64,000 bases of DNA from Gammaproteobacteria bacterium (GCA_016209015.1 JACQWY010000028.1:13356-77355), one strand, 5' to 3'; counted from the first letter of the stretch, positions 19,384 to 48,628 are shown. Notes: generated by a model not told the origin, from the letters alone. Translations and numbers: made by a program.

Positions 19384-19466
19384 ACGCGAACCGTAGCAAA
19401 AGCTACGTTGCGGCGCAGGTAGCGTTAGCTGTTGAACGAAAATGTAGCGTTTGCTATTCTTCGGCA
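19384..19466. promoter_or_regulatory. OR-like divergent promoter/operator region with three TAGC-N4-GCTA operators
   Basis: TAGCAAAAGCTA (19394-19405), TAGCGTTAGCTg (19420-19431), TAGCGTTTGCTA (19445-19456); ~25-bp spacing. Confidence 0.55.
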
Positions 19467-19697
19467 ATGACATTCCTTCGGTATTACTCCGCCCTTGATG
19501 CTGACGGCAAGAAGCAGTTGGCTGAGAAACTGGAAACCTCTATCGCCTATCTTTCTCAGCTCGCTCACGGCCATCGAAAGCCCGGGGCACGGATTCTGGC
19601 GCGCATCGAGAGCGCGACCGGAGGGCAAGTCACTCCGGCTGATATGCGGCCCGATCTCTTCGCCGCCCCGAAGCTCCGCGCACGAAAAGTCGGCTGA
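19467..19697 (+). CDS. Cro-like small HTH regulator (76 aa)
   Basis: MTFLRYYSALDADGKKQLAEKLETSIAYLSQLAHGHRKP...; ORF-track start trimmed to the ATG at 19467. Confidence 0.6.
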   Translation: MTFLRYYSALDADGKKQLAEKLETSIAYLSQLAHGHRKPGARILARIESATGGQVTPADMRPDLFAAPKLRARKVG

Positions 19698-23467: not shown

Positions 23468-23820
23468 TGCGCCCCTGCCTCGACTACCGCTGTGCGAAGA
23501 AAGGGAAACTGCAACCGTTCTCGAACTTCGGCGAGACGCCGCGCGGCACGCCGAGGCGCATCTGCAAGGCGTGCACGGCTCGCCGAGACGCCGAGGCTCA
23601 GGAGCGCCGCGATCGTCGCAACGAGAGGCGCCGCAACGCCTACGAGCCGCCGAGCCTCAACCCGAACGCGATGTATCGCCAGTGGTTCAACACAGAAAAT
23701 GAATTCAACGCGGCGATGCGGCGCGCTGACGACCTCGAGCGGCGCGGGTGCCCGCTGCGCGCATCGCGCGTGAGGCTCAACGTCGACTCCATGCTCACCC
23801 CGCTGAAGGCGTATCGGTGA
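23464..23820 (+). CDS. Cys-rich (zinc-finger-like) basic protein (118 aa)
   Basis: CLDYRC...CKAC. Confidence 0.4.
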   Translation: MMRPCLDYRCAKKGKLQPFSNFGETPRGTPRRICKACTARRDAEAQERRDRRNERRRNAYEPPSLNPNAMYRQWFNTENEFNAAMRRADDLERRGCPLRASRVRLNVDSMLTPLKAYR

Positions 23821-24803
23821 ATGAACTACGTGTCGGCAGTCTGTTCGCCGGTATCGGATCCTTCGATCTCGGATTCGAGCGCGCCGGCGGCTTCCGCACC
23901 GTGTGGTTCAGCGAAATCGATCGCTTCTGTTCAGCCGTGCTCGACGCCAGGTTCCCCGGCATACCGAACCATGGCGACATTACCGCTATTCGAGGATGCA
24001 ATGTCGAGCCCGTCGACGTGCTCGTCGGAGGTTTCCCATGCACCGACATTTCCGTCGCCGGCCGGGGCGCGGGCATCGAAGGGCCGGAGTCTGGTCTTTG
24101 GAGAGAGTTCGCTCGACTTGCTGGCGAGCTTAGACCCCGTTGGATCGTTATTGAAAACAGCCGTGCTCTCCGAAATCGAGGCTATGACCGGGTTGCGTCA
24201 CAGTTGGAAGCACTCGGGTACGCCGTGTGGCCGTTCGTGGTTTCGGCTGCTGACGTCGGGGCGGTCCATCTCCGCGAGCGCGTCTGGGTTATTGCCCACA
24301 CCGACAGCGAACGATGCCGAGAACTCGGGCTCGCGGAACACAGCGAACAGCAAAGCACACCCGGGCGTGAGCCTGACCGACTGGGTACGGGGCGACCAGG
24401 GCAGGGGGCGGCTACTGCCGACGCCGACGACGACAGCCTACGGCTCGAACAGTGGGGGACGCCACGAGGGCCACGCACGGCCGGGCCTCAAGACGATGGC
24501 GACGCACGGCATGCTCCCGACACCCTCGCACCGCGACTACCGCTCCCCGAATGCGAAGCCGTACTCCGAGCGGGGTGGCGGTATGAAAGGCGAGCAGTTG
24601 CCGAATGCGATCGCGCACGACCTTGGGATGCCGGGCCGCCTGTCGCCCCTGTTTGTCTCGTGGATGATTGGACTCCCGACTCGCTGGTGCGACATCGGCG
24701 ACCGGCGCTTAGGGCGCTCGGCAACAGCCTCCTCCCGCAAATCGCGGAAATCATCGCGCGTGCAATCCGACGGGTCGAAGACCAGTTGAGGGGGCTTCAT
24801 TGA
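23817..24803 (+). CDS. DNA cytosine-5 methyltransferase (GTG start overlapping the upstream stop)
   Basis: motif I FAGIGSFDLGF, motif IV GGFPCTDIS, motif VI ENS, C-terminal motif X LGNSLLPQIAEII. Confidence 0.75.
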   Translation: MNELRVGSLFAGIGSFDLGFERAGGFRTVWFSEIDRFCSAVLDARFPGIPNHGDITAIRGCNVEPVDVLVGGFPCTDISVAGRGAGIEGPESGLWREFARLAGELRPRWIVIENSRALRNRGYDRVASQLEALGYAVWPFVVSAADVGAVHLRERVWVIAHTDSERCRELGLAEHSEQQSTPGREPDRLGTGRPGQGAATADADDDSLRLEQWGTPRGPRTAGPQDDGDARHAPDTLAPRLPLPECEAVLRAGWRYERRAVAECDRARPWDAGPPVAPVCLVDDWTPDSLVRHRRPALRALGNSLLPQIAEIIARAIRRVEDQLRGLH

Positions 24804-25354
24804 AGGCGGAATACCTGCTCACGCGCGCGGCCGGCGGCATCTGCGGCTACGAGGCGCAGATCCCGGGAACGAATCAGACCGTGAAGTTCACGACGGCCGA
24901 TGTCGGTCACGCGCTCGCCGGCGCGCACTGGTACGAGCGCGACCTTGTGCTGCTGAAGTGGGCGATGACGCCGCAGAACATCAACGCGCTCGCCAGGTCT
25001 GCGCTCGCGCGAGTGCAGCGCTCCGGTGTGGAGCTCCCGCCGCGTGGGGGCGCGCGCCTCATCCTCGTCGCGCGCGGCGCCCTGGCCGAAGTCGTGAGCG
25101 CGACGCTCTGCGGGAAGTGCGCTGGGCTCGGCTTCACTGTGCCGACAGAGCACAAGCGCGAAGTCTGCGAGTCGTGCGCAGGTCTCGGCGTCGGTCCGTG
25201 GTCGTCACGGCAGCGCGCCGCCGAATTAAAGATCCCCCGCGAGACCTTCCGCCGCAGTTGGTCGAAGCCGTACGACGAGCTCCGAAGAACATTTATCGCT
25301 GACGAGACGAATGCGCTCACCCTGATGTATCACCATCTGCGCAACCGCCTCTGA
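24800..25354 (+). CDS. Q-like late-gene antiterminator candidate (zinc-binding)
   Basis: CGKCAGLG-x21-CESCAGLG zinc finger; last gene before a hairpin terminator and the lysis/late genes. Confidence 0.45.
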   Translation: MKAEYLLTRAAGGICGYEAQIPGTNQTVKFTTADVGHALAGAHWYERDLVLLKWAMTPQNINALARSALARVQRSGVELPPRGGARLILVARGALAEVVSATLCGKCAGLGFTVPTEHKREVCESCAGLGVGPWSSRQRAAELKIPRETFRRSWSKPYDELRRTFIADETNALTLMYHHLRNRL

Positions 25355-25482: not shown

Positions 25483-25812
25483 GTGAACCGCGACGACATC
25501 ACGCAGGAGTCCGCGCGCCCGCGTGCGCGTGTGCATATCGATCCCAAGATTACGATCGATGGCGTGCTCCAGGTGCTCGTCATCGGTGCTGGCCTCGTCA
25601 TGTGGTTCGCGAAGGCCGAGGCCGTCGGGCCGCAACTCCAGGAGCGCCTGTCCTCCGTCACCGCGCTGCTCGAGACCAAGATCGACGCGAATGCGAAGCT
25701 CAGCCAGCAAGCCACTCTCGACATTGACAAGCGGCTCGCGCGCATCGACGCGAAGCTCGATCAACTGCTCGTGTTTCCGACCACCGGGACGCATCAGGCG
25801 TCCGCCCCGTGA
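25483..25812 (+). CDS. single-TM small membrane protein, putative holin/lysis regulator
   Basis: GVLQVLVIGAGLVMWF helix; first gene of the lysis cassette. Confidence 0.4.
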   Translation: MNRDDITQESARPRARVHIDPKITIDGVLQVLVIGAGLVMWFAKAEAVGPQLQERLSSVTALLETKIDANAKLSQQATLDIDKRLARIDAKLDQLLVFPTTGTHQASAP

Positions 25813-26408
25813 CCCCGATCCCGAGCCTGTACGACAGCCTCATCAAGGCCGCCGTCGCGAAGCACGCGCCGGGCCTCGACTGGCGCTGGATTAAAGCCCA
25901 GTGCTGGCAGGAGTCGCACTTCGACGTCGACGCCAAGTCCCCGGTTGGCGCGCGCGGGATCGCGCAGTTCATGCCCGCGACGTGGGCGGAAGAGTGCAAG
26001 CTGCTCGGCTACGGGCTGTCCGCGGATCCGTGCGACCCCGAGCTCGCCATCCCTGCGTGCGCGCACTACATGAGCCGGCTGCGCTTCGCATGGCGGTCAG
26101 CCGCCGCGAGCTCCGCAGATCTCCAGGCGCTCGCGCTCGCGAGCTACAACGCCGGCTCCGGGAACATCTACCGCGCGAGCCGTATCGCGTTTCCGATCTG
26201 GAAAATGGTGACATGGGACGCGGTGGCGTCCGAGCTGCACAAAGTCACTGGCGACGATGACGCCCCGGAGACGCTCGACTACATCGCGAAGGTTCACAGC
26301 TACTACCGACAAATCTGCGCCGCCGAGAGCATCACCCCTGAATCAGTTCTGAGCCCGGCAGATCAACCGGGAAGCAACGGCGCCGCGGCCGTTCCGCGGC
26401 AACAGTAG
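25809..26408 (+). CDS. endolysin, lytic transglycosylase (SLT domain)
   Basis: ESHFDVDAKSPVGARGIAQFMPATW ... YNAG motifs. Confidence 0.8.
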   Translation: MTPIPSLYDSLIKAAVAKHAPGLDWRWIKAQCWQESHFDVDAKSPVGARGIAQFMPATWAEECKLLGYGLSADPCDPELAIPACAHYMSRLRFAWRSAAASSADLQALALASYNAGSGNIYRASRIAFPIWKMVTWDAVASELHKVTGDDDAPETLDYIAKVHSYYRQICAAESITPESVLSPADQPGSNGAAAVPRQQ

Positions 26409-26514: not shown

Positions 26515-26814
26515 ATGGAAACCCCAGTTGCACAGACCGAGGACGCGACTTCGTTCGAACGCGAAGTCGTTCCCGGTGAACCCCGAGCGCTCGCGGAGCG
26601 CCGCTCGCACGCCTGGAAGCAGCGCGAGCGCATGGCGTGGGTCGCGACCATCACGATTGCGATCACGATGATTGTCCCGCTTGGGCACGACGTGACGGCC
26701 GGGAGCTCGGGCATCATCAGCAACGGACAATGGGCATTCGCGGTCGTTCTGTTGGTTTTCGTCGGCGGCAAAGCGGCTGTCGAGGCGCTCGTCTCGATCC
26801 GCGGTATCAAGTGA
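26515..26814 (+). CDS. two-TM holin-like protein (99 aa)
   Basis: two hydrophobic helices; sits between the endolysin and the spanins. Confidence 0.5.
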   Translation: METPVAQTEDATSFEREVVPGEPRALAERRSHAWKQRERMAWVATITIAITMIVPLGHDVTAGSSGIISNGQWAFAVVLLVFVGGKAAVEALVSIRGIK

Positions 26815-27179
26815 TGTTCGGGCTCACCGCAAAGATGCAGGCCGTCGTCGCGGGGATCCTCGTGGCGATCATCATCGGCCTCGGGATCTCCCTGTTCGTG
26901 GAATGGGGGCGCGTTAAGGTGCTCGAGGTCAAGGTCGCGAGCGCGCAGACCGACGCCGTCGCTTACAAGGCGACGATCGACAAGTTCAGCACCGAGAATC
27001 GCAACCTCGCCGATTCCATTCGCGCGCAGGATGCCCGCATCGAGCGCATGAAAGCAGACCAGGACCGCGCACAGTCGGAGGCCGACGCACGAGCTCGAGC
27101 CGCGCTGGGGCGCAAGGTGGCCGTTCCCGAAACGCACGGACCGGACACGCTCAATCTATGGTGGGGGCGCTTGCAGTGA
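26814..27179 (+). CDS. i-spanin (Rz-like): N-terminal TM plus periplasmic coiled-coil
   Basis: MFGLTAKMQAVVAGILVAIIIGLGISLFV then a charged helical region; ATGA-coupled. Confidence 0.6.
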   Translation: MFGLTAKMQAVVAGILVAIIIGLGISLFVEWGRVKVLEVKVASAQTDAVAYKATIDKFSTENRNLADSIRAQDARIERMKADQDRAQSEADARARAALGRKVAVPETHGPDTLNLWWGRLQ

Positions 27180-27759: not shown

Positions 27760-28083
27760 TTATCTGGATTGAGGCGGCGCAATAGCCGACTCGACCGCCG
27801 CGGCGGTTTTCGAATCGCCCAACAGCACCTCGAGCACGATGCGCCGCATGTGGTGCTGCACGCCCTCGGGAATCGAGCGGCGTGCGTTGCGCCACTCGCC
27901 CAGCCGGGAGAGCGTGTAGGCGCCATCCGTGGCCACATTGAGCAGGCTCAGGCCGTCGCTCAGCGTGCCGTGTGCGAGCGTGACGGCCTGCCACGCCGCC
28001 ACGAGGTCGGGGCCTAAGGCGGCCGCCTGCTCGCGCAGACGGGCACGCCAGTTGCGGTTCGGGTGGTTCATCCGATTTCCCAC
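27760..28083 (-). CDS. moron operon gene 3 (107 aa), paralog of 29319..29606
   Basis: ...LGPDLVAAWQAVTLAHGTLSDGLSLLNV...W.NARRSIPEGVQHHMRRIVLEVLL aligns with the other copy. Confidence 0.4.
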   Translation of the reverse strand: MGNRMNHPNRNWRARLREQAAALGPDLVAAWQAVTLAHGTLSDGLSLLNVATDGAYTLSRLGEWRNARRSIPEGVQHHMRRIVLEVLLGDSKTAAAVESAIAPPQSR

Positions 28084-28265
28084 GATTCGCGCGGCTCGGC
28101 GAGCGCGGCGAATGCCTCGGCTTGTTCGGTCGGCTTGGTGCGCTCGTACGCGAGCAGCGCGTCATGCGCTGCGCTCAATGCGCTTTCGATCGCCTCCGTG
28201 ACGTTCGGACCGGAAAGAATCGCGCCAAGCGCGGATCGGGCTTTTACGACTTTCTGCATATCCAT
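28068..28265 (-). CDS. moron operon gene 2 (65 aa)
   Basis: ORF track. Confidence 0.35.
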   Translation of the reverse strand: MDMQKVVKARSALGAILSGPNVTEAIESALSAAHDALLAYERTKPTEQAEAFAALAEPRESWEIG

Positions 28266-28312
28266 TTTCGTATCCTCCGAAAAAGGCGCCCGATGGGCCG
28301 GGCGCCGTGGGG

Positions 28313-28990
28313 TTAGATCGATCCGCCGAGAAACTGCACGCGGCGATAGTGCTCGGCGTAGTCATTCCAGCCGCCGACGCCGGGGTACTCGTAGCACCCC
28401 ACCGAGTCGTGGATCGCCTCGCGGATGCGGCGCTCCAGCTCATCCGCGATGGAGCCGTGGATGAGCACATCGTTTGCGGCGGCCTCGGCCTCCAGGCCGG
28501 CGACGGCCTCGGCCAGGGTGGCGTACCGCCGCATGTACTCGGAATCCGGGCAGCACGCGAGGTAGTCGCCGGCCGCCCAGATCTGCGCGAGGTTTGCGGG
28601 GTCCTCGCCGATCGCGTCGAGCATATCCTGAATGCGCTCCCGCGCGTCTACGGCGTCATCCGTGAGGCGCCCGACGTGGTTGTTGCCGTCCCACTTGATT
28701 GAGTGGCCGGCATGCAAAAGCTCGAATTCGGGCCGCAGTTCGTTGAGCACGTCGGCGAGCACGTCGCCGGACACGTAGGGCGATACGCCCCACCGCAGGG
28801 TCCGGGTGTGCCATACGGCCATCGGCAAGCCGCTGCCGGGGTTGTAGCTGGCGGAGACGACTCCGCCGTCGTCCATCTCCACGATCCCGGGCTGCGGGCT
28901 GCTCTGCCCGGGGTACTGGTGATAGAGCGGGGCGCGCTCGGCGCGCAGGGCGTCGGTGCACAGGGTGATGGTTGATTCTGTTGTGGTCAT
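28313..28990 (-). CDS. moron operon gene 1 (225 aa), unknown; C-terminal Rx5H (HEPN-like?) motif
   Basis: GGAG SD; directly downstream of a near-consensus sigma70 promoter; ELERRIREAIHD. Confidence 0.5.
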   Translation of the reverse strand: MTTTESTITLCTDALRAERAPLYHQYPGQSSPQPGIVEMDDGGVVSASYNPGSGLPMAVWHTRTLRWGVSPYVSGDVLADVLNELRPEFELLHAGHSIKWDGNNHVGRLTDDAVDARERIQDMLDAIGEDPANLAQIWAAGDYLACCPDSEYMRRYATLAEAVAGLEAEAAANDVLIHGSIADELERRIREAIHDSVGCYEYPGVGGWNDYAEHYRRVQFLGGSI

Positions 28991-29049
28991 CGGATTTCTC
29001 CGCCCCTGAACCCCGAGGCGCGGGCGCTCTGGTATCAGAGCGTGGTGTA

Positions 29050-29078
29050 ATAATATCCCAGAAGTGGGATAGTGTCAA
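29050..29078 (-). promoter_or_regulatory. near-consensus sigma70 promoter, leftward: TTGACA-17 bp-TATTAT
   Basis: minus strand TTGACActatcccacttctgggaTATTAT, ~55 nt upstream of the ATG at 28990. Confidence 0.55.
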
Positions 29079-29079
29079 G

Positions 29080-29096
29080 CCCCCCCCCTTTTTTTT
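29080..29096. repeat. C9T8 homopolymer tract just upstream of the -35
   Basis: cccccccccttttttttat; a slippage-prone simple repeat. Confidence 0.5.
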
Positions 29097-29318
29097 ATCT
29101 CGATGGAGTCCGCGATGAAGATCCACGCGCCGCCGGAGAGCGGCAACGCCCTCAATGCCGTCGCGCACCAGATCGGCATCGCACCGGAGTCCCCGCCGCC
29201 TCGCGCCAAGCCGAAGAAGGCGCGCGAGGCGACCGGCAAGACGCACGGACTGAATTTATCACTACGCCACTGGTGTAGAGCGAAGCCCGGGGCCTGGAGC
29301 GGCCCCGGGCAGAGCGTA

Positions 29319-29606
29319 TTAGGGCGGGCTCAGAACGGCGGTGAGCGCGGAAGTCGCGCCACCTGACGGGAAGAGAAAGTCGATGACGACCTGTCGCATG
29401 ATGCGCTGAAACCGTTCGGGGACGGGACGCTCGCCGCGTCGCCACTGCCCGAACCGCGCGTGGTCGTACGACGAGCCGAGGCGGGCATTGATGGCCTGCA
29501 GCACGTCGCCGAGGCTGTGCCCATCCGCCTCGACGACAGACTGAAACGCCTCCACGAGGTTAGAGCCGAGCGCTTCCGCGCGGGCCTTGAGCGGATTCGC
29601 CATCAC
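29319..29606 (-). CDS. second leftward operon, last gene (95 aa), paralog of 27760..28083
   Basis: alignment as above; ATGA-coupled. Confidence 0.4.
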   Translation of the reverse strand: MMANPLKARAEALGSNLVEAFQSVVEADGHSLGDVLQAINARLGSSYDHARFGQWRRGERPVPERFQRIMRQVVIDFLFPSGGATSALTAVLSPP

Positions 29607-29866
29607 ACCATTTCCGTGCTGACGGCGGGGAACGGCCATTCGTGGCCGCAGGCGCTGCACTTGAGCGTCGCGCCAGACGCGTCGCCCTCGTAGACGCACG
29701 AGTCGGCGTCGATGAGCACCTTAGGCTTGCGGTTCGCGCCCGGGTGGGGCTCGTCGCACCACAGGATTTCGCTCAGGTCGTAGTACGCCTTGCACGGCTC
29801 GATGTAGAGCATTAGCGCGGGGTCCTCGTTCGAGCACACCGGGCATGCTGCTGGATGCTTGTTCAT
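29603..29866 (-). CDS. zinc-ribbon protein (87 aa; CPVC...CSACGHEW)
   Basis: two CxxC pairs. Confidence 0.4.
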   Translation of the reverse strand: MNKHPAACPVCSNEDPALMLYIEPCKAYYDLSEILWCDEPHPGANRKPKVLIDADSCVYEGDASGATLKCSACGHEWPFPAVSTEMV

Positions 29867-29875
29867 GGGTCCTCC

Positions 29876-30139
29876 TTAGTGGCCGTAGACGGAGTCGTCG
29901 ACCATCACGATGTGGAATTCCGGCGCAGCGCCCCCGCCCATGAGGTAGGGCTCTGCGACGCCGGTCTCGGGTAGCGGACGCAACAGGTCCGCGAGCATTT
30001 CGGCTTCGTCGATTCCGTTCACGGCCGCGAACTCCGCAATCGGCCCCTGCCACGTCATCTCGTACCACTGGATCGCGTCGGTGCGGTGCACGCGGAAAAC
30101 TTGGATATGCGATTGGGTCGTGTGCATGTTCGTCTCCAA
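29876..30139 (-). CDS. hypothetical protein (87 aa)
   Basis: ORF track. Confidence 0.4.
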   Translation of the reverse strand: METNMHTTQSHIQVFRVHRTDAIQWYEMTWQGPIAEFAAVNGIDEAEMLADLLRPLPETGVAEPYLMGGGAAPEFHIVMVDDSVYGH

Positions 30140-30174
30140 GGGGGCGGCGCCCGATGGGCCGGGCGCTGGGGTGG

Positions 30175-30414
30175 TTATTCGTCGCGTGCCGGGACGAGAC
30201 GCAATTTGTCGTAGCCGTAGGGCTCAAGGCGCGCCGAATCGGCGTCTGGGCCATCGCCGTAGCCGCCACCGCATTTGCAGTCGGGCGCCGACGGGCACAG
30301 GGCGCGCTCTACGCGGCGGGTCTGGCTCCGCGATAAGACGAATCCCTCCGCGGGGCCGACGAGCGTGATGCCATAGCGCCCGTGAAAATTATGGCCGGAG
30401 ATTGTGTGCTTCAT
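30175..30414 (-). CDS. hypothetical protein (79 aa)
   Basis: ORF track. Confidence 0.4.
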   Translation of the reverse strand: MKHTISGHNFHGRYGITLVGPAEGFVLSRSQTRRVERALCPSAPDCKCGGGYGDGPDADSARLEPYGYDKLRLVPARDE

Positions 30415-30524
30415 TTCGATTCTCCTGGGCGGAATGCCCGTGTCACTACATTAGGCCAAATCTGGCCTAGTAGTCAAGGCCGACGTTTCTTTGTTTCCCG
30501 AGTCCATCACGCACCCGCGAGGAA

Positions 30525-30770: not shown

Positions 30771-31172
30771 ATGGCACTCGGATTTAACGCGACCCTGCGC
30801 ACCGCGCGGGGTCAGAAGATCGCCGATGCCGTCAACGGCGGGGCCGGGGCAGGCAAGCTGCGCATCTACGCGGGCACGCGCCCAGCGACCGGCGGCACCG
30901 CGACCACGCTGCTCGCCGAGCTCACGTTCGCGGACCCGATGGAAGCCTCGGTGTCCTCGGGCGTGCTCACGGCCGACTCGATCATCGGGGATACGTCTGC
31001 CGACGCCACGGGCACCGCGGCGTGGTTCCGGGTGGTGGACTCGACGGGCACGCACGTCATGGATGGCGACGTCGGGACGTCGGGCTCGGACCTCAACCTC
31101 ACGAGCACAAGCATCGTCGCGACCGAGGGCGTGGACGTGACTTCTTTCGTGCTCACCGAGGGTAACGCTTGA
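30771..31172 (+). CDS. structural-paralog-family protein (133 aa), homolog of 51919, 52379 and 33653 products
   Basis: shared ...IYAGT.P......TLLA...GTAAWFRVVD...G.SG.DLNL motif. Confidence 0.5.
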   Translation: MALGFNATLRTARGQKIADAVNGGAGAGKLRIYAGTRPATGGTATTLLAELTFADPMEASVSSGVLTADSIIGDTSADATGTAAWFRVVDSTGTHVMDGDVGTSGSDLNLTSTSIVATEGVDVTSFVLTEGNA

Positions 31173-31210
31173 TCTCTGCTGACGCTCGCGCGGCGCTGCG
31201 GAGGATTATG

Positions 31211-33643
31211 TCGGGAGGCGCGGGCCGGTATCGCGCGATCTTGCGTGTGGTCGCGTTGCTGGCCTGCCTGCCAGGTCTCGCGCTCGCCGCCGGCACGCAG
31301 GGTCGCAGCGCGGCGAACGTCTACGTGGCCCCCCAAGCCACCGACGTCGACGCGAGCGCGGTTGCGAGCGCGAATTTCGACAACGCGTACGGCACGCTGT
31401 CGTTTCGGTGCGGTCAGCAAGGGGTCCTCGTCTGCCAGTCATTCGACGACTCATCGGTATTCGTCAATGCCTCCGGCACCGGCGGCGGCTACGGCTCAGG
31501 ACTCTATCCCAGCGGCCAGGACGGCCAGCTCCACGGCGTCCGCGACACGGCTACGAAGTTTGAGGGTGCGGGATCGCTGCGCTTCGACATTCGAGCCGGC
31601 GCGAACGGCGGTCCAGGAGGGAGCCCTGTCGAGTTCACGACGTTGCCGGCGGGAGAATGGCGCTCGCAATTCGGTCCGGATGGTCAAGCGACGCGCATCG
31701 GCGGAGACAACAGCAAGGTCTACATCCAGTTCAGCTATCGGCTCTCTCCGGAAATGCTCACATTCGACTGGCCGTCGCTCGGGGGGCAGGGCTGGAAAAG
31801 CTTCATCGTCTTCGGGCCGTACAACACGAGCTCCTGCACGTCCGACCAATTCGTGCAGGAAAACAGCAACCAGAAAAACATTCTGATCGGGTACACGCAC
31901 TGCTCGGCTCCGAGTTTGCGCACTCAGCAATCGACGCCCTACAACTACCAGCAAGGAAAATACTCCTGCCCGTACGGCACGAACTACGCGACCGACCCCA
32001 CCTGTCTGCGCTACCAGTCCGACACGTGGATCACCGAATACTGGGTCGTGCACATCGGGCAACTCGGCACGGCGAGCACGACATTCGAGGCGTATGCGAG
32101 TTTCAATCGCGGCCCGTTCGAGAAATTCATCGGGCTGACGGGATTCACGCTCGGCGACTACGACCCGAATCACAACCTCGCGAACTACGTTGGTTTGCAG
32201 ACGATATTGCTGACGCCCTATTTCTCGGGCATCACCACGACGCACTACGACTATCCCGCGGCGTCCGTCTGGTACGACTCACTGATCGTGTCGACGAGTC
32301 CGATCATGATGCCCGGAGGATTCCACATCGGCACGACCCCGGGATGGTACGAGGTCCCTGATTCCTGGCTCTGGCCGTGCCCGACGACGACGTACTCGAC
32401 CGGCATCACGTCGAATATCTGCACCGGCCTCATCGACGCCTGGAACGGCGGCGCGATGGACACGAAGCGGCATCGGCTGTTGCTCCACGGTGGCGGGCAC
32501 CAGGACTATCGCGGTAACGAGGTCTGGGCGATCAACACCGCCGATGGCACGACCCAGAAGTTCATTGAAGCCTCGGACGTCGCATGCGGCGTCGACTCGC
32601 TCGACCCCGCCTCGTACTGGCAGTACGGCACCTATCTGCCGATTGCGGCGACGACAGCGCGCTCGGCGTCCGGCACAACCGCGACGCTGACGCTCTCGGA
32701 TGCCTCGCACTCGAGTCTGGTCGCTGGGCGCACCGTCACGATTCAGGGCATGGGCAACGCGAGCTACAACAAGGCCCACGCGATCCTGACCGCGGTCAAT
32801 CGGGTCGCGAGAACCGTGAGTTACACGATCCCGGCGACGACCGAGACGACAACGGCCGACACCGGCGGGCAAATCGTGGACGAGGCATGCGAGTACTACC
32901 CTGATGGGCGGCCCTCGGCACGCCACAACTACGAGGGGCTCGTCTACGTCGGGCCTCGAGCGGGCGACGCGAACGACTATATGTACGAGCTCGGCGGCTC
33001 ACTGAACGGCCAGGGCCTGAAGCCGGTGCGCGCGAGTTTCGCGATCTGGCGCCTGAACCTCGTCACGAACCAGTGGGAGTCGATGTGGCCCTACAACGGC
33101 ACCGTGATGAACAGCGCGGTGCAGGCGTGCGCGTATCACGCCGCCTACGGCTCGATCTATTGCTGGGACGAATACAACCAGGTCAACCGCTACGAGCTCG
33201 CGACAAACACGATGGACCGCTCGGCCTCGCGCTCGGGCAACTCGGGTCACGCCTCGGTCGCCATCGATCCCGCGCGCAATCAAATGCTGATCATCGGCGA
33301 CAGCACGCTCTACCGCGCTAATCTCGCCCCACCCGGCACACCGCAGGCCAAGGGCGACAACATCACGAGCTCCACGTTCGGCTGCGCGACGATGCTCGCC
33401 CAGCAGAACGCGGGATTCGTCTATGACCCTGTCGACCAGACATTCGTCGCGTGGAACGGCGGGGACACCGTCTGGCGCTTCCATCCGGACTCGCTGGTCT
33501 GCGACACCCTGAGTTATTCGTTCGGTCCCGGCGCGAATGCGCCCTGGGGAGCGTTCTCGCATTTTCAGTACGACCCCTACACGGACGGCTTCATCGTCGT
33601 CACGAACTACAAGCGAAACGCTTTCATCCTCAAGACTCGATAG
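31211..33643 (+). CDS. large secreted (or lipo-)protein: NVYVAP beta-helix-type N-terminus plus C-terminal Kelch-like beta-propeller
   Basis: signal peptide RYRAILRVVALLACLPGLALA; repeated blades such as GLVYVGPRAGD, AYGSIYCWDEYNQ, GFVYDPVDQTFVAWNGGD; the ORF track begins upstream at 31169. Confidence 0.5.
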   Translation, partial: SGGAGRYRAILRVVALLACLPGLALAAGTQGRSAANVYVAPQATDVDASAVASANFDNAYGTLSFRCGQQGVLVCQSFDDSSVFVNASGTGGGYGSGLYPSGQDGQLHGVRDTATKFEGAGSLRFDIRAGANGGPGGSPVEFTTLPAGEWRSQFGPDGQATRIGGDNSKVYIQFSYRLSPEMLTFDWPSLGGQGWKSFIVFGPYNTSSCTSDQFVQENSNQKNILIGYTHCSAPSLRTQQSTPYNYQQGKYSCPYGTNYATDPTCLRYQSDTWITEYWVVHIGQLGTASTTFEAYASFNRGPFEKFIGLTGFTLGDYDPNHNLANYVGLQTILLTPYFSGITTTHYDYPAASVWYDSLIVSTSPIMMPGGFHIGTTPGWYEVPDSWLWPCPTTTYSTGITSNICTGLIDAWNGGAMDTKRHRLLLHGGGHQDYRGNEVWAINTADGTTQKFIEASDVACGVDSLDPASYWQYGTYLPIAATTARSASGTTATLTLSDASHSSLVAGRTVTIQGMGNASYNKAHAILTAVNRVARTVSYTIPATTETTTADTGGQIVDEACEYYPDGRPSARHNYEGLVYVGPRAGDANDYMYELGGSLNGQGLKPVRASFAIWRLNLVTNQWESMWPYNGTVMNSAVQACAYHAAYGSIYCWDEYNQVNRYELATNTMDRSASRSGNSGHASVAIDPARNQMLIIGDSTLYRANLAPPGTPQAKGDNITSSTFGCATMLAQQNAGFVYDPVDQTFVAWNGGDTVWRFHPDSLVCDTLSYSFGPGANAPWGAFSHFQYDPYTDGFIVVTNYKRNAFILKTR

Positions 33644-33652
33644 GAGAACGAC

Positions 33653-34099
33653 ATGACCGCATTGACCGGCAAGGGCGACACGTTCGAGAACGCGATGCTC
33701 AAACTCGTGCTCTGGAATCAGGCGTTCGGCACGTTGTGGGCGGCTGGCGCGCTCGGGAATCTCTGGTGCTCTCTGAACTACGCCGATCCGACTGAAGAGG
33801 GCACCGCGCAGTCTAGTGAAGCCTCGTATCCGTCCTACGCGCGCGCCTCTCTGAACCGCAACGCGGGCAGCTTCACGATCGTCGGCAATGCCGCGAACTT
33901 CGCGGCCGACGTCGCGTTCACGCGCTCGACTGGCGCTGAGCCGAATGGCGGTGGCTCACTCGGATTTTGGACCCTCACGGACGCCGTGAGCGGCGCCTCG
34001 ACCGCCCTCTATGGTGGCCCGCTCTCGGGCGCCATCCCGGTCGGAAGCACCGGTATCGCGCCGATTCTCACGACGGGCACCGTCATCCGCGAAGGCTGA
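33653..34099 (+). CDS. paralog-family protein (148 aa)
   Basis: GGGSLGFWTLTDAVSGASTALYGG... Confidence 0.45.
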   Translation: MTALTGKGDTFENAMLKLVLWNQAFGTLWAAGALGNLWCSLNYADPTEEGTAQSSEASYPSYARASLNRNAGSFTIVGNAANFAADVAFTRSTGAEPNGGGSLGFWTLTDAVSGASTALYGGPLSGAIPVGSTGIAPILTTGTVIREG

Positions 34100-34107
34100 G
34101 ATGATCC

Positions 34108-35760
34108 GTGGCGGTCATCAACTTCGCCGGCTGGAACGCGGGCAGCGTCAACCAGGACGGCGCATCGAGCTCCGGCGGCACGCTGTCGGTCGTCGCCGGC
34201 GCGGGGGCGCGCGGGGAGAACGCACTCCGCTGTAACCCGACCGGCACGAACACCGGCGTATTCGACCTCGGTGGATTCTCGAGCACAGGCCAGCCGACGA
34301 CGTTCTCGGGCCTCGCCGCGCTCTACGGCGGGTTCTGGTTCAAGTATCACTTGGCGCCCGCCACCGGCGACGAGCCGATCGCCGCGTGGTATTCGAGTTC
34401 GAGCGCGCTGCGCGGCGAGCTGCGCCTCAATAGCGGCGGATTTCTCGTGCTCTACGACGCGGCGCTCGTCGCGCGCGGCACGTCAGCGACGCCGCTCGAC
34501 CCCGACACGTGGTATTACATCCGCGGCCGGATGGGCGGCGCGGCCTCGGCGCAAACGCAGATCCAGGTGTGCACGGCGCCGACCTATTCGCCTGTCACGG
34601 TCATCGACTACACCGGGAATTTCGGCGGCACTATCGCGTTCATGCGCCTCGGGAAGGGGGTGAACCGCAACGGAAACGCGGTCGACTTCTACTACGCGGT
34701 CGTCGTCATCGACACGGCGAGTGTTCCGATCCCGCAGTACTACGTGCGAAACGGCCAGCCGACGGCGAACGGCTCGACGTACACGTTCAGCGGCAGCGGC
34801 GCGGGCGCGAACGATTACACGTCGGTGGACGAAGTCATCATCTCGACCGCGGATTACGTGCGCTCCGGCGCGCAGAACGAGCTCGCGCTTTTCGCGATGG
34901 CGAATTGCAGCGCGATGGGCATAGCGAACGGCGACACCATCATCTCCGTGCGTGCCGGCGCCAGCCTGCGCGAGGCGACGGCCGGGGCCTCGGCCTACGT
35001 GCTCCGCATCAAGAGCGGCGCGACGAACAGCGACAACGCAGCGCTCGACCCCGGCACGACGTTCATCCCGCGATTCCGGCTGGTCAACACCGATCCCGCG
35101 ACCGCGACGACGTGGACGCAGAGCGGCGTCGACGGCCTCGAGATCGGCGTGCTCGATTCGAGCACCGGCGGCCGCGTCGACGTCGCGTGGGTCGATCTGG
35201 CGGTGCTCGCCCAGGTCTCGCCAGCGGCGGCCGGCACGGCGGATGCGGGTGCAACCGCGACCGGCGACGCCGGGGCGAACGTCTACGCGTCCGCGACCGT
35301 CGATGCGGGGGCCGACGCGCTCGGTGTGCCACAGACGTACAGCGCGGCCGGCAGTTCGACCGTCATCGCGACGGCGGAAGCCGAAGGCATCGCGGCGATC
35401 GACGTCTCGTCCGACGGCATCGGCGCCGATGCTCAGGCGTCCGTGGCCGCAGACAACTATGCCGACGATCAGTCGTATGCGCTCGCCGCGGGCGTCGCCG
35501 GCACCGAGACGCCGGACACCGTCGCGGCGCTGCTCGCCGACGCGACGCTGAGCGCGAGCGGCAGGCTCACGCACAAAGGCGTGGCCGCGCGCCAGGTCCA
35601 GGACGCGACGTCCACCGGCAGCGGCAGGCTGAAGCACAAGGGCGCGGCTGCGCGGAGCACCGCCAATGCGGCCTCGAACTCCACGGGCCGCGTGCGCAAG
35701 CCTCGCAAGGTCTCGGGCGGCGTCGCCCTCGTGGGGTCCATTCGAGTGGAGTTGCGATAA
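34108..35760 (+). CDS. fibre-like structural protein (550 aa) with C-terminal GRLxHKG repeats
   Basis: GTG start with GAAGG SD; C-terminus SGRLTHKGVAARQ.../SGRLKHKGAAARS. Confidence 0.5.
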   Translation: MAVINFAGWNAGSVNQDGASSSGGTLSVVAGAGARGENALRCNPTGTNTGVFDLGGFSSTGQPTTFSGLAALYGGFWFKYHLAPATGDEPIAAWYSSSSALRGELRLNSGGFLVLYDAALVARGTSATPLDPDTWYYIRGRMGGAASAQTQIQVCTAPTYSPVTVIDYTGNFGGTIAFMRLGKGVNRNGNAVDFYYAVVVIDTASVPIPQYYVRNGQPTANGSTYTFSGSGAGANDYTSVDEVIISTADYVRSGAQNELALFAMANCSAMGIANGDTIISVRAGASLREATAGASAYVLRIKSGATNSDNAALDPGTTFIPRFRLVNTDPATATTWTQSGVDGLEIGVLDSSTGGRVDVAWVDLAVLAQVSPAAAGTADAGATATGDAGANVYASATVDAGADALGVPQTYSAAGSSTVIATAEAEGIAAIDVSSDGIGADAQASVAADNYADDQSYALAAGVAGTETPDTVAALLADATLSASGRLTHKGVAARQVQDATSTGSGRLKHKGAAARSTANAASNSTGRVRKPRKVSGGVALVGSIRVELR

Positions 35761-37104
35761 GTGGCGAACCGATACGTAAGGTCCACGGACGGCAGCGATG
35801 CCGATGACGCCTCGACGTGGGCGCTCGCCAAGGCGACGATCGCCGGGCTCGACGCCATCGACACCGCCGGAGATTACCTCTACGTCTCGCAGTCGCACGC
35901 CGAGACGACGGGCGCCGCGGTGTCGTGGTCGTTCGCCGGCACCGAGGCGTCACCGACGAAACTCGTGTGCGCGAACGACGGCGCCGAGCCGCCGACCACG
36001 CTCGCGAACACGGCGACGGCGACTACGAACGCCGCCTCGTCCGGCTTCACGTTCTCCGGGAATTGCTACGTCCACGGGATCTCGTTCACGGCGGGCAGCG
36101 GGCAGAGCACGACGTGTTCAATCCTGCAGAGCCAAGCCTCGAGCACGATTCAGACGTTCAATCAGTGCAAGTTCATCTTGGCCTCGACGGGCGTGAGCTC
36201 GCGCATCCAGGCGTCGCTGTCGTCGGCCATCAACCCGGTGCAAACCATCTGGAACGACTGCGACGTGAAGTTCGCGGCGTCCGGCCAGGGCATCCAGGTC
36301 GGCGAAGGGGAGTTCCAGTGGCGCGGCGGCTCTCTGCTCTCGGGCGGGACCTCGCCGACGTCGCTATTCGTGACCGCGGCGGGCTCGCAGCGCGGCGGGA
36401 AATGCACCATCGACGGCGTCGACCTCTCGAACGCCGGCACCGGCATCACGATTTTTGGCAGCGTCGCTGCGCCCACGGTCGCGAAAATCCGGAACTGCAA
36501 GCTCCCGGCGAGCTGGAGCGGGACGCTGACAACCGGCACGCTCTATCCCGGCCAGCGCTACGAGATGATCAACTGCGACGCCGGCGACACGCATTACCGG
36601 ATCTGGGTGCAGGCGTACTGGGGCACCATCAAGAGCGAAGCGACGCTCGTGCGCACGGGGTCTCCGACGAACGGCGCCGACAACATCAGTTGGCAAATGG
36701 TGAGCGTCGCCAACACCGAATATCCGCACCAAACCCTCGAGTCGCCCGAGATCATCGCGTGGAACGACACCGTCGGGAGTTCGGTGACCGCGACGCTCCA
36801 CGTGCTCCACGACAGCGCGACGAACCTCAAGGACAACGACATCTGGATCGAGGTCATGTACTGCGGGACTTCGGGCGCGCCGCTCGGCAGCTACACCCGG
36901 GATTCGGTTGCCGTGCTCGGCGCGGCCGCTGATCAGGCGTCGGATGCTGGCGAGACCTGGACGACGACCGGCATGACGAATCCGAACAAGCAGAAGCTCA
37001 ACGTCAGTTTCACGCCGCAAGAAGTGGGCTGGGTTGTGGCGCGCGTGCATCTCGCGCTCGCGAGCAAGACCGTCTACGTCGATCCCGTCCTCGAGCTGGC
37101 CTGA
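35761..37104 (+). CDS. beta-helix/tailspike-like protein (447 aa, no signal peptide)
   Basis: N-terminus RYVRSTDGSDADDAS; Ser/Thr/Gly-rich repeats. Confidence 0.5.
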   Translation: MANRYVRSTDGSDADDASTWALAKATIAGLDAIDTAGDYLYVSQSHAETTGAAVSWSFAGTEASPTKLVCANDGAEPPTTLANTATATTNAASSGFTFSGNCYVHGISFTAGSGQSTTCSILQSQASSTIQTFNQCKFILASTGVSSRIQASLSSAINPVQTIWNDCDVKFAASGQGIQVGEGEFQWRGGSLLSGGTSPTSLFVTAAGSQRGGKCTIDGVDLSNAGTGITIFGSVAAPTVAKIRNCKLPASWSGTLTTGTLYPGQRYEMINCDAGDTHYRIWVQAYWGTIKSEATLVRTGSPTNGADNISWQMVSVANTEYPHQTLESPEIIAWNDTVGSSVTATLHVLHDSATNLKDNDIWIEVMYCGTSGAPLGSYTRDSVAVLGAAADQASDAGETWTTTGMTNPNKQKLNVSFTPQEVGWVVARVHLALASKTVYVDPVLELA

Positions 37105-37766
37105 TGGCGACGTTCAAGCGGTTCACGCCGCAGGGCATCGCCGTCAGCTACTCGGATGCCTCGGCATTCAAACGATTCACGCCGGCCGGAGACCAGTTCT
37201 CGGTCGCGTCCGCGCCCTCGGTCAGCGGGTCGCTCGCGCTTACCCTGGCCGATGCGACGTCCTCGAGCGCGGGGCGACGCCGGCATTCGGGCTCTCTGGC
37301 GCACACGCTGGGCGTCACGACGCCGAGCATCGCGGGCAAGCGTCGGCACTACGGCAATGCCGCGCGCAGCCTCGACAGCGCGACCTCAAGCGCGGCAGGA
37401 CGGCGCACGCATCGCGGCGCGGCCTCGGCGACACTCGACGCCGGCGTATCCAGCGCCAGCGGGAAGCTCAGCCACCGCGGCGCGAGCTCCGCCTCCCTGG
37501 CGGCGGTCGTGCTCAACGCGAGCGGCACGATTTCCGGCGGCGGCGCGGGCATCACCGGCTCGGCCTCGGCCTACACGCTCGGCGCCGCGCTCTCCGCGCA
37601 GGGCAGGCTCCTCCACTACGGAGCGATCGAGAACCATCTCGACGCCGTGACGATGACGGCGTCAGGCCCCGGCGCAACGGGTCTGCATCGCTACGTGATG
37701 GGATTGAGTGTATTCATCGGCTCGCGCCGTCTCGGTCGCGACCTCAAAGGGAGTGGCACGCTGTGA
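37104..37766 (+). CDS. tandem-repeat protein: seven ~21-aa units ending GR(R/L)xHxG
   Basis: SLALTLADATSSSAGRRRHSG / SLAHTLGVTTPSIAGKRRHYG / ...GRRTHRG / ...GKLSHRG / ...GRLLHYG. Confidence 0.5.
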   Translation: MATFKRFTPQGIAVSYSDASAFKRFTPAGDQFSVASAPSVSGSLALTLADATSSSAGRRRHSGSLAHTLGVTTPSIAGKRRHYGNAARSLDSATSSAAGRRTHRGAASATLDAGVSSASGKLSHRGASSASLAAVVLNASGTISGGGAGITGSASAYTLGAALSAQGRLLHYGAIENHLDAVTMTASGPGATGLHRYVMGLSVFIGSRRLGRDLKGSGTL

Positions 37767-38467
37767 CGACACGCAAGTTCCCGCCGCGCGTCCGGGTATT
37801 CAGTGCGACGACAGGCACGGGCACGCTGACGCTCGGCGCCGCGTGGCCTGGCAGCCAGGCCGTGCCTGCGAACTGCGACGGCTGCGAGATCGACTACACG
37901 ATCGCGGACGGCGCCGACTGGGAAGAGGGGCGCGGCGTCTATTCGGCCGGCGCGAACACGCTGACGCGCGGCCTCATCGCGAGCTCCACCGGCGCGCTGC
38001 TCGATCTGAGCGGAAACGAATCGGTGTTCTCGACGATCTCGTCGCGCACCATGGAAGAGCTCTGGCGTACCGAGTGGGTGGAGTTCACGTACGACGGCGC
38101 GCATTTCTCCGGGGGCCCGAACGGGCTGTACTGGCAAGTCGACGCGGCAGATCAGAAGCAATATAGGTATCGCTACATCAGCGATTCGACGCTCGCCATC
38201 GCGATTACGCTCACGGGGACCACGTTCGCCGGGCTCGCGGACTTTCAGTTGCAGATCACGCTCCCCGCCGGGCGCACCGTCGCTAAAACGAGCCTCATCG
38301 GGAGCATCGTCGCGACGTCGTCGGTCTCCGGGGTCATCCCTGTACTGGCGCTTGCGGCGGGGAACAATTCGCTTATCGTCATCGACAAGCAGAGCGGGGA
38401 TCCGTGGAGTTCTGCCGATGGATCCGTGGCGATTTATATCCAGGCGATATTCGAGGTCAACCCCTGA
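37763..38467 (+). CDS. hypothetical structural protein (234 aa), GTG start
   Basis: GTGA overlap with the upstream stop. Confidence 0.45.
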   Translation: MTTRKFPPRVRVFSATTGTGTLTLGAAWPGSQAVPANCDGCEIDYTIADGADWEEGRGVYSAGANTLTRGLIASSTGALLDLSGNESVFSTISSRTMEELWRTEWVEFTYDGAHFSGGPNGLYWQVDAADQKQYRYRYISDSTLAIAITLTGTTFAGLADFQLQITLPAGRTVAKTSLIGSIVATSSVSGVIPVLALAAGNNSLIVIDKQSGDPWSSADGSVAIYIQAIFEVNP

Positions 38468-38733
38468 TGCTCGGTCATCACGGGATCTCGGAAGCCCCGA
38501 TCTCGACGCTGCGCGGCGGCGTCACCGGCGCCGCGGCATCTCTGCTCGGCGCGGTAGCAGTCTCTGCGGTCGGCAGACTGATTCACTACGGCGAAGTCGT
38601 GTCAACGCTCGCCGCGACCACGCTCGTCGCGTTCGAAACCCTCGAGCCCGTCGGCATGGGGCTTTCGATATTCCGCGGACTCTGGCGGCGCGGCCGGGAC
38701 CTGCAGGGCACATGCGGTACTTCTGGAGACTGA
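38467..38733 (+). CDS. small protein (88 aa) with one GRLIHYG repeat unit
   Basis: ATGA-coupled; AVGRLIHYGEVVSTLAAT. Confidence 0.4.
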   Translation: MLGHHGISEAPISTLRGGVTGAAASLLGAVAVSAVGRLIHYGEVVSTLAATTLVAFETLEPVGMGLSIFRGLWRRGRDLQGTCGTSGD

Positions 38734-48606: not shown

Positions 48607-48628
48607 TCTGAACGCAACCGACGCGAGA

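Follow-up and report, generated by a model that had tools for sequence, protein, structure and literature searches.

The closest described relatives of the locus reported here are the acr-aca operons. These operons are characterised by a strong promoter whose core contains an inverted repeat, together with structured 5′UTRs, RNA motifs between the cistrons and adjacent operons that are co-regulated (PMC9410906, PMC13551039); in the autorepressed acr-aca promoters, the inverted repeat lies inside the core promoter (PMC9410906). In JBD30 (acrIF1-aca1), DMS3 (acrIE3-aca1), ZF40 (acrIF8-aca2) and others of the Aca1–Aca13 series, a sigma70-like promoter with a core inverted repeat is followed by a structured 5′UTR, and a small cargo gene comes first and a small regulator last. 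The loci of Aca11, Aca13 and Aca14 consist of adjacent small-gene operons with an inverted repeat on the −10 and RNA motifs between genes, and one regulator there controls several operons by way of near-identical inverted repeats (PMC12658196, PMC13551039). New anti-CRISPR and anti-defence proteins are found chiefly through guilt by association with Aca genes. Two further systems resemble our locus in part. The controller (C) proteins of restriction-modification (R-M) systems are small XRE-type helix-turn-helix (HTH) proteins that act on palindromic operators in their own promoter and in this way time expression. The bor-type morons of phage lambda lie directly behind the lysis genes, as leftward, independently promoted inserts in a late region that runs rightward; bor itself is a single lysogenic-conversion lipoprotein gene, without operator or autoregulator.

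We analysed a stretch of 64,000 nucleotides (64 kb, hereafter the window) in which the host element is a lambdoid prophage. Seven minus-strand ORFs at 27760–30414, the same as the seven NCBI genes HY749_16185–16215, interrupt the rightward late region, as a first-pass annotation of this DNA had stated, and every neighbor of the block is on the plus strand. The block separates the lysis cassette from the virion genes, with a Q-like antiterminator, an SLT endolysin and an Rz-like spanin on its upstream side, and a virion protein, a head-like protein, TerL, portal and major capsid protein on its downstream side. GC3 of the seven genes (0.70–0.88) was similar to that of flanking genes. Reading leftward, operon 1 consists of promoter P1, the 225-aa gene, hairpin copy 1, the 65-aa gene and paralog A; operon 2 consists of P2, the 79-aa gene, hairpin copy 2, the 83-aa gene, the 87-aa gene and paralog B. 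The coding features are as follows.

27760–28071, minus strand: Aca-like paralog A, 103 aa, pI 10.6, closing operon 1; its start overlaps the stop of the 65-aa gene (ATGA)
28068–28265, minus strand: 65-aa acidic cargo protein, pI 4.75, second gene of operon 1, no family or PDB match
28313–28990, minus strand: 225-aa acidic protein, DUF8280 (PF26929), first (cargo) gene of operon 1
29115–29366, plus strand: doubtful 83-aa ORF between the operons, a Logan call and not an NCBI one, GC3 0.84
29319–29603, minus strand: Aca-like paralog B, 94 aa, pI 8.4, closing operon 2; its start overlaps the preceding gene (ATGA)
29603–29866, minus strand: 87-aa acidic protein, putative zinc ribbon with CxxC pairs C8xxC11 ... 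C70xxC73 and sub-threshold Pfam hits
29876–30127, minus strand: 83-aa acidic cargo protein, most likely from ATG 30127 with a GGAGA ribosome binding site (RBS); listed from TTG 30139 as 87 aa
30175–30414, minus strand: 79-aa protein, first (cargo) gene of operon 2, with invariant H3, H11, C40, C46 and C48 and a GGGYGDGPD motif

The start of paralog A is most likely ATG 28071 (103 aa), and the alternative GTG 28083 would give 107 aa. No homologs were found for the plus-strand ORF at 29115–29366. The moron-like placement proposed earlier was borne out by predicted promoters of the block's own (P1 and P2), a probable terminator for operon 2, the opposite strand, and the position in the gap between spanin and virion genes; no clear terminator was found 3′ of operon 1. 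This leftward, independently promoted insert right after the lysis genes is like a bor-type moron; unlike bor, it holds two multi-gene, putatively autoregulated operons. Searches of GenBank phages with the region (megablast, tblastn) gave no match, and the same was true of the 225-aa, Aca-like and 79-aa proteins. Rfam had no match in the window or region, and neither tRNA nor CRISPR array was found in the 64 kb. Scans of the seven proteins, the gap ORF and two flanking small plus-strand ORFs against Pfam, PHROGs, PADLOC and NCBIfam returned nothing significant.

We concluded that the block is probably a tandem pair of leftward, acr-aca-type anti-defence operons, each with an Aca-like paralog that would repress the operon encoding it. 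The promoters and their candidate operators are as follows.

29050–29078, minus strand: promoter P1, TTGACA-17-TATTAT, 11/12 consensus matches
29054–29071, within P1: candidate operator TATCCCA-N4-TGGGATA, a perfect 7-N4-7 palindrome
30448–30477, minus strand: promoter P2, TTGACT-18-TAATGT, carrying a palindrome
30452–30469, within P2: candidate operator TAGGCCA-N4-TGGCCTA, a perfect 7-N4-7 palindrome

P1 is the near-consensus sigma70 promoter that had been reported for this locus, found on the minus strand at 29078–29050. A consensus scan returned two promoter-like sites, versus 0.6 expected in shuffles; the second site, GTGACA-16-GAGAAT (30446–30419), was rejected because the RBS of the 79-aa gene and the −10 of this site overlap. 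P2 was absent from the scan output because its poor −10 matches at only 3/6 positions. Both palindromes span the spacer and the −10, and their register with respect to the two hexamers is the same. The combination of TTGAC[AT] with a palindrome occurred in just these two cases in 64 kb, and each operator sequence was unique within the window. The candidate operator DNA is TATCCCAGAAGTGGGATA for paralog A and TAGGCCAAATCTGGCCTA for paralog B. In a search of IMG/VR for the promoter/operator pattern, four matches were obtained (L011–L014), all without Aca-like genes and at about the number expected by chance.

The first-pass annotation had considered P1 likely constitutive in the lysogen. We doubt this: each promoter has a palindrome spanning its spacer and −10, and each operon closes with a small, basic, helical protein, an arrangement known from autorepressed acr-aca promoters (PMC9410906). 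The same operators bear on the idea that the block is one or more morons of benefit to the host, that is, a novel defence, superinfection-exclusion or toxin-antitoxin (TA) module expressed constitutively in the lysogen. Such a moron could well sit on the opposite strand between lysis and morphogenesis genes under its own near-consensus promoter, and the small paired genes with stop/start overlaps resemble TA layouts; however, candidate operators in both promoters argue against simple constitutive expression. If the operons are instead of the acr-aca type, host RNA polymerase would fire the promoters once the DNA becomes available, and the resulting burst of cargo would neutralise host immunity (CRISPR-Cas or other). 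The Aca-like protein would then build up and bind its own operator, probably as a dimer, and the operon would be throttled, which may also limit collision with the convergent late transcript.

Four RNA-level features accompany these promoters.

28991–29043, minus strand: predicted 5′UTR of operon 1, two stem-loops; SL1 is 29025–29042, CGCTCTG-N4-CAGAGCG
28285–28306, minus strand: hairpin copy 1, GGCGCCCGGCCCATCGGGCGCC, then TTTTT and the RBS of the 65-aa gene
30146–30166, minus strand: hairpin copy 2, with a 20-nt core identical to copy 1
29285–29310, minus strand: strong GC hairpin, probable operon-2 terminator, −33.9 kcal/mol, z = −3.4, just 3′ of paralog B

In each operon the hairpin lies directly 3′ of the first gene. 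The 20-mer was exact in 6/6 cassette copies, each time after TAA-CC..CC, and such an invariant hairpin after the first gene sets these operons apart from acr-aca operons. Scans of three collections for the 20-mer yielded 0 occurrences in IMG/VR, 37 in JGI metagenomes and 36 in GTDB genomes (596 Gb); every one of these was in an unrelated context without an Aca-like or cargo homolog, and no new cassettes were obtained. For the hairpin, a role in the RNA is most likely: it may terminate transcription leakily, stabilise a 3′ end or bind a protein, and it would keep the output of the first gene high relative to that of the regulator.

The same scaffold was present in a metagenomic cassette, L006, whose last gene is an ortholog of paralog A (64% identity). 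The L006 promoter reads TTGACA-c-TATCCCG-N4-CGGGATA-TAATAA, in which an A..T to G..C change relative to P1 preserves the palindrome; conservation of the operator is read here from three promoters only. The L006 5′UTR has two stem-loops as in the window, SL1 being kept with a different stem sequence (compensatory changes), and the exact 20-nt hairpin lies 3′ of gene 1. That gene encodes an AcrIE3 homolog (E 6.5e-21 versus PDB 8hel/8zey, residues 1–66), a likeness to acr-aca operons that consists of an association in one metagenomic contig. The slot filled by AcrIE3 in L006 is the slot of the 225-aa DUF8280 protein in operon 1, and cargo differs between cassettes with this regulator. AcrIE3 in the cargo slot of the L006 scaffold is among the grounds on which we read the cassettes as anti-defence loci, and the window's own cargo would serve the same function. 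An anti-CRISPR rather than a defence gene in the orthologous scaffold also speaks against a moron of benefit to the host. The first-pass annotation had missed the operators, as well as the intercistronic hairpin common to both operons and the AcrIE3 link.

L006 is informative on a further element of P1.

29080–29096, no strand assigned: C9T8 tract (A8G9 on the transcribed strand), C9 at 29080–29088 and T8 at 29089–29096, abutting the −35

This tract, which spans roughly −37 to −53 in P1 coordinates, was indeed found beside the −35 as described earlier, in a window with only seven homopolymers of at least 7 nt. It had been proposed as a slipped-strand switch, turning P1 on and off or changing its strength. 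Two adjacent long homopolymers beside a −35 are very unlikely by composition, and the A8 run falls where a subsite of an UP element is expected relative to a promoter. On the other hand, because the two homopolymers lie outside the hexamer pair, 5′ of the −35, slippage would leave hexamer spacing unchanged. Moreover, the predicted length polymorphism was not seen: tract length was identical in three assemblies from two runs (the GenBank MAG and two independent run assemblies), and the homologous L006 promoter lacks the tract altogether. A switch of this kind therefore seems very unlikely to us.

Among the cargo proteins, the 225-aa protein (P0001) and all seven of its homologs carry a match to DUF8280 that is a precomputed Pfam hit, the PF26929 model being outside the Pfam set that we scanned. 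Its AF2 model (pLDDT 82) had no PDB fold match, nor did its sequence. The C-terminal Rx5H motif reported for this protein is present (R188–H194, RRIREAIH), but the suggested HEPN likeness did not hold: the motif was not conserved among eight homologs, model confidence falls in this region (pLDDT block means of 83 for residues 181–190 and 57 for residues 191–200), and no HEPN match was found with Pfam, PADLOC or Foldseek-PDB. We rejected HEPN for the 225-aa protein on these grounds. Homologs with DUF8280 adjoin Acr-type or Aca-like genes. The closest (L097) is beside a weak AcrIC5-like gene (E 0.015), an RHH gene and an HTH gene; in L007, DUF8280 occurs with the hairpin and an Aca-like gene, adjoining a lysis cassette; and in L003 and L004 it has no Aca-like neighbour. 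The 79-aa protein (pI 7.76, near neutral) has homologs in small accessory cassettes of other phages. Two zinc-ribbon proteins had been claimed; only the 87-aa protein resembles a classical zinc ribbon, and the Cys/His pattern of the 79-aa protein is a different one. The 87-aa protein had no relatives in the PDB or IMG/VR, and none were found for the 83-aa protein, IMG/VR included. A PDB sequence search of each cargo protein gave nothing.

No protein in the window matched a known Acr (Pfam, PHROGs, PDB) or an anti-defence or defence family. The promoters with inverted repeats and the regulator-last order are those of acr-aca operons, and a cargo with no match to a known Acr is one of the points of difference. 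Earlier, defence, anti-defence and TA functions had all been entertained for this locus; anti-defence is the option that our results favor, and defence and TA modules lost ground, with no match to a defence or toxin family in PADLOC, Pfam or NCBIfam. Given also the failure of the HEPN idea, we consider it quite improbable that the block is a host-benefit moron. We judge less improbable, but still unlikely, that the operons are generic accessory or host-takeover cassettes that are HTH-autoregulated and act in metabolism or lysis-lysogeny with no role in immunity evasion, AcrIE3 being an interchangeable passenger. In favor of this, cargo varies among cassettes, the DUF8280 and 79-aa families also occur in early/replication-type neighbourhoods, and weak Aca-like homologs are found on conjugative plasmids, adjoining a phosphoribosyltransferase. 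However, Acr-type genes are associated with the cassettes in two independent cases (AcrIE3 and the weak AcrIC5-like gene), the cargo proteins are mostly small and acidic, and the regulatory layout matches that of anti-defence loci (PMC9410906, PMC13551039).

The acr-aca reading also makes a regulator of the last gene in each operon. The two last genes are paralogs, as the first-pass annotation had recognised (36% identity over 90 aa, E 3e-19, BLASTP). Both stand last and are translationally coupled, with ATGA overlaps, and the Aca-like gene is likewise last in L006–L010; their pI values (10.6 and 8.4) compare with 4.6–4.75 in 4/5 cargo proteins. The AF2 model of paralog A (pLDDT 87) has six helices. 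Foldseek searches of PDB and BFVD listed mostly XRE HTH repressors, R-M C-proteins and Aca2, with no significant hit (best E of 1.9 in PDB and 0.82 in BFVD), and hhalign of a paralog against the window's own CI-like HTH protein aligned 24 columns, a helix+GxRxP segment, at a probability of 12%. The paralogs may be XRE-type HTH proteins, at a level of similarity that is non-significant, and would bind DNA and repress. The C proteins C.Esp1396I and C.Csp231I were among the fold matches, again without significance, and the paralogs as proposed would resemble C proteins in their size, fold and operators; unlike R-M systems, the window operons have no R or M genes.

Two profiles (A3 and A7) were compared with the PDB, in which Aca1, Aca2, Aca7, Aca10 and Aca11 are present, and retrieved only Aca2 (E about 0.85); the direct comparison covers those five families. 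A Pfam scan of 102 members of the Aca-like family gave just sporadic HTH matches, and by sequence the paralogs could not be assigned to any of the Pfam HTH families. In these respects the window's regulators differ from those of acr-aca operons, falling outside the Pfam HTH families and the PDB-held Aca1, 2, 7, 10 and 11. Protein-pattern scans for the family gave nothing usable in GTDB genomes or IMG/VR. It is possible, if short of probable, that the locus represents a new Aca family (~186 clusters at 50% identity, no Pfam model), with the hairpin as a new post-transcriptional control point, five new inhibitors of CRISPR-Cas or other defence systems (DUF8280, the 79-aa His/Cys protein and the remaining three small acidic proteins), and insulated circuits. 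Such a regulator family, if true, would come with an operator, a 5′UTR fold and a diagnostic 20-nt hairpin by which new cassettes could be mined, and five cargo families, including the Pfam family DUF8280, would be nominated.

Two paralogous regulators with different operators side by side are a further departure from acr-aca operons, and the Aca11, Aca13 and Aca14 loci, where one regulator controls several operons, contrast with the one paralog per operon seen here. The half-sites of P1 and P2 differ at positions 3–4 (TATCCCA vs TAGGCCA). Orthologs with the TATCCC operator have a common predicted recognition helix, YTLSRLGEW, and that predicted for paralog B (TAGGCC operator) is YDHARFGQW. 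The differing half-sites suggest, on sequence grounds, that the two circuits may be insulated from each other. If true, two regulator/operator pairs would let one phage time two sets of anti-defence genes independently, and such adjacent pairs would be a natural test case for divergence of Aca specificity. No convincing further operator copies were found elsewhere in the window; one internal palindrome shares the core of the P2 operator.

29634–29647, no strand assigned: internal palindrome GGCCA-N4-TGGCC, core as in the P2 operator, ~30 nt upstream of the paralog B start

The seven leftward genes (HY749_16185 to HY749_16215) lie within a lambdoid gene organisation, in a MAG of ~65% GC annotated as 'Gammaproteobacteria bacterium'. 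The first-pass annotation had placed them between the lysis cassette and the late structural region, and this placement was correct because all of their neighbours are on the plus strand. The seven minus-strand ORFs were also judged real from their position, their GC3 (0.70–0.88, as in flanking genes) and independent NCBI and Logan calls.

Features in and around the two leftward operons.
18976–19473, minus strand: CI-like HTH repressor
23748–24803: DNA methyltransferase
24800–25354: Q-like antiterminator
25809–26408: SLT endolysin
26814–27179: Rz-like spanin, after which come the seven leftward genes
28285–28306, minus strand: intercistronic hairpin, operon 1 copy
30146–30166, minus strand: intercistronic hairpin, operon 2 copy
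30771–31172: virion protein
33653–34099: head-like protein
41767–43506: TerL
43800–45875: portal/adaptor
47022–48059: major capsid protein

The most likely start of paralog A, the last gene of operon 1, was ATG 28071 (103 aa), and its orthologs begin MTNHPNR; that of the middle gene of operon 2 was ATG 30127 (83 aa), with a GGAGA ribosome binding site. The start codon of each paralog gene overlaps the stop codon before it (ATGA). Of the five cargo proteins, four were acidic (pI 4.6–4.75); the 79-aa protein was near neutral (7.76), and the paralogs were basic (pI 10.6 for A and 8.4 for B). A virion-type gene block at 30771–38700, which includes phrog_3758, an 811-aa protein without a PHROG match and a phrog_240 head-like protein, precedes the large terminase gene instead of following it. 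In the head/tail gene region, GC hairpins with a TTCG loop occur at 48079, 48628, 49245 and 51879; those at 48628 and 49245 are identical (AGGGCCCttcgGGGCCCT), with a T8 run after the 49245 copy, and all are probably terminators or RNA-stabilising hairpins.

The near-consensus promoter of operon 1 (P1) was present as described earlier (TTGACA-17-TATTAT, 29078..29050), as was the C9T8 pair beside its −35 hexamer (C9 29080–29088, T8 29089–29096). P1 and the promoter of operon 2 (P2) both contain a perfect 7-N4-7 palindrome in identical register: P1 reads TTGACA-c-TATCCCActtcTGGGATA-TTAT, and P2 reads TTGACT-ac-TAGGCCAgattTGGCCTA-ATGT. Such palindromes are not rare (13 observed in 64 kb versus ~9.5 expected); three of the 13 fall in the two promoter regions, and P1 and P2 are the sole cases in 64 kb of TTGAC[AT] followed by one. 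Each operator sequence occurs once in the window. A further palindrome, GGCCAttcgTGGCC (29634–29647), ~30 nt before the start codon of paralog B, has a core as in the P2 operator. As RNA it folds into a 7-bp hairpin, which may mimic the operator.

The C9T8 tract had been proposed as a slipped-strand phase switch for P1, and the run pair is indeed statistically odd. However, because the tract lies at about −37 to −53, slippage would leave the distance between its −35 and −10 hexamers unchanged. Its length was identical in the MAG and two run-level assemblies, and it is missing from the promoter of a related metagenomic cassette (L006). A phase switch appears unlikely. In our own reading, the A8 run could possibly have an UP-element-like effect on P1.

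In each operon the stop codon of gene 1 is followed by an identical 20-nt hairpin, GCGCCCGGCCCATCGGGCGC (minus strand), and the 20-mer was exact in all six copies from the window and related cassettes. Elsewhere it was found at only 36 sites in GTDB genomes (596 Gb) and at 37 in JGI metagenomes, none of them in a related context. Because a T-run lies 3' of some copies only, the copies do not uniformly qualify as intrinsic terminators; the invariance of stem and loop suggests that the hairpin is recognised by its sequence or marks a conserved boundary of recombination. Operon 1 has a predicted 5'UTR with two stem-loops, and a strong hairpin follows operon 2 (29285–29310; −33.9 kcal/mol, z = −3.4). 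An 83-aa plus-strand ORF between the operons (29115–29366), called by Logan and absent from the NCBI calls, has a GGAG ribosome binding site and a gene-like GC3 of 0.84; it spans the probable operon 2 terminator, overlaps paralog B by 48 nt and had no family match. There is a faint resemblance between its 'KTHGLNLSLRHW' stretch and the RHH strand in a regulator ORF of another locus (L097), and thus the 83-aa ORF may be a decayed gene.

Five close metagenomic homologs of the paralog family were found (44–75% identity), and among their loci only L006 had a complete operon. Its promoter, TTGACA-c-TATCCCGcagaCGGGATA-TAATAA, carries the P1 operator, in which A..T has become G..C and the palindrome is kept, and its 5'UTR has the same two stem-loops as operon 1, the first stem being different yet complementary. 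After gene 1 come TAA-CCCCAA, an exact copy of the 20-nt hairpin and two more genes; the last gene encodes a 120-aa protein orthologous to paralog A (64% identity). Gene 1 encodes a true homolog of AcrIE3, extended at its C terminus (phmmer, E 6.5e-21 over residues 1–66 with PDB 8hel_A and 8zey_A). The other cassettes were partial: L007 repeats the operon 1 layout (DUF8280 homolog of 41% identity, hairpin, 79-aa gene, Aca-like gene) and is convergent with a holin/lysozyme cassette, and L009 and L010 have the order cargo, hairpin, Aca-like gene. Because the hairpin is exact in six cassette copies versus unrelated contexts elsewhere, the conserved unit, as read from sequence, is a regulatory scaffold whose cargo slot varies, and the hairpin is a putative diagnostic feature of it. 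At 3663–4045 of L006, two copies of ACTTGCCATTCrGTGC...CCGAATGGCAAATA flank a segment of ~300 nt that closely follows the Aca-like gene, and a 208-aa gene there has an HxK...-type (PLD-like) motif.

In published acr–aca loci, strong host-type promoters contain an inverted repeat within their core and are repressed by the co-encoded Aca (PMC9410906); the 5'UTRs are structured, RNA motifs lie between cistrons, and co-regulated anti-defence operons sit next to each other (PMC13551039; PMC12658196). The window operons match these loci in layout. Given this layout and AcrIE3 in the orthologous cargo slot, the best explanation is, on balance, that these are two acr-aca-type anti-defence operons, in which each Aca-like paralog would repress its own operon's promoter. 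We infer the anti-defence function of the locus from association.

The last genes of the two operons were paralogous, as had been claimed (36% identity, E 3e-19). An AF2 model from a seven-sequence alignment has six helices (pLDDT 87). Foldseek with this model gave no significant match (best E 1.9 in PDB, 0.82 in BFVD); XRE/lambda-repressor-like HTH proteins dominated both non-significant lists, whose members included SinR, ClgR, R-M C-proteins, Aca2, P22 c2 and HTH_XRE phage proteins. The segment YTLSRLGEW-RNARRSIP fits the XRE pattern, recognition helix then G-x-R-x-P, and hhalign aligned exactly this segment, weakly (probability 12%), to the window's CI-like HTH. The putative recognition helix is common to orthologs having the TATCCC operator; the corresponding helix in paralog B, with operator TAGGCC, is YDHARFGQW. 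An exhaustive profile search returned 186 clusters at E <= 1e-3, mostly 75–135 aa, and a Pfam scan of 102 of them gave sporadic HTH_3, HTH_31 and HTH_33 matches only. The PDB profile search reached Aca2 entries at E ~0.85 and no other solved Aca. By these searches, the putative regulator family is not in Pfam and is without detectable relation to Aca proteins in PDB. DNA binding by the paralogs would fit all data. Weak Aca-like homologs (~32% identity, E 3e-3) occur on MOBP conjugative plasmids (NZ_CP030081.1 17398–19344 and eight others) of Enterobacter, Edwardsiella, Piscirickettsia, Vibrio and Aeromonas, in third position of a small operon ahead of a phosphoribosyltransferase.

The 225-aa protein belongs to DUF8280 (PF26929) by precomputed Pfam match, and its conserved core includes H-x-G-H ... 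W-D-G-N-N-H-V-G. Its AF2 model (pLDDT 82) had no fold match in PDB (best E 0.58), nor did its sequence. A HEPN-like reading of its Rx5H motif was rejected because R188–H194 is not conserved. Overall, the first-pass annotation was confirmed in its sequence observations and borne out in part in its interpretation. The closest homolog (P0003, 48% identity) is the second gene of an L097 operon that extends to an HTH-like ORF. The operon immediately upstream contains an RHH-like ORF and an AcrIC5-like gene, the latter a weak assignment (weak in Pfam; PDB 7yhr, E 0.015), and a 25-nt motif is common to both promoters. Two other loci (L003, L004) have DUF8280 without such neighbours. The L097 stretch 880–1650, with tandem operons (AcrIC5-like and RHH; 92 aa, DUF8280 and HTH), the motif GCGTGTTACAAAAAAGTnCTTGCGG in both promoters and a perfect palindrome, TGTCCTAATATTAGGACA, over the −10 of the second operon, has the look of a multi-operon anti-defence locus of the Aca14 style.

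The 65-, 83- and 87-aa proteins had no relatives in family libraries, PDB, IMG/VR or the fetched loci. In the 79-aa protein, H3, H11, C40, C46 and C48 are invariant and a GGGYGDGPD motif is present; small accessory cassettes house its homologs. One such cassette (L093) runs opposite to the terminase (GpA) and portal genes that flank it, and has a near-consensus promoter (TTGACA-N17-TAGAAT) and an intercistronic hairpin, GGCCA-N4-TGGCC (GGCCAcggaTGGCC). It comprises three to four genes (2913–4160; 89-aa, 79-aa-family, CxxC zinc-finger ORF, 97-aa membrane protein) and repeats the theme of a reverse cassette in the late region, in a phage unrelated to that of the window.
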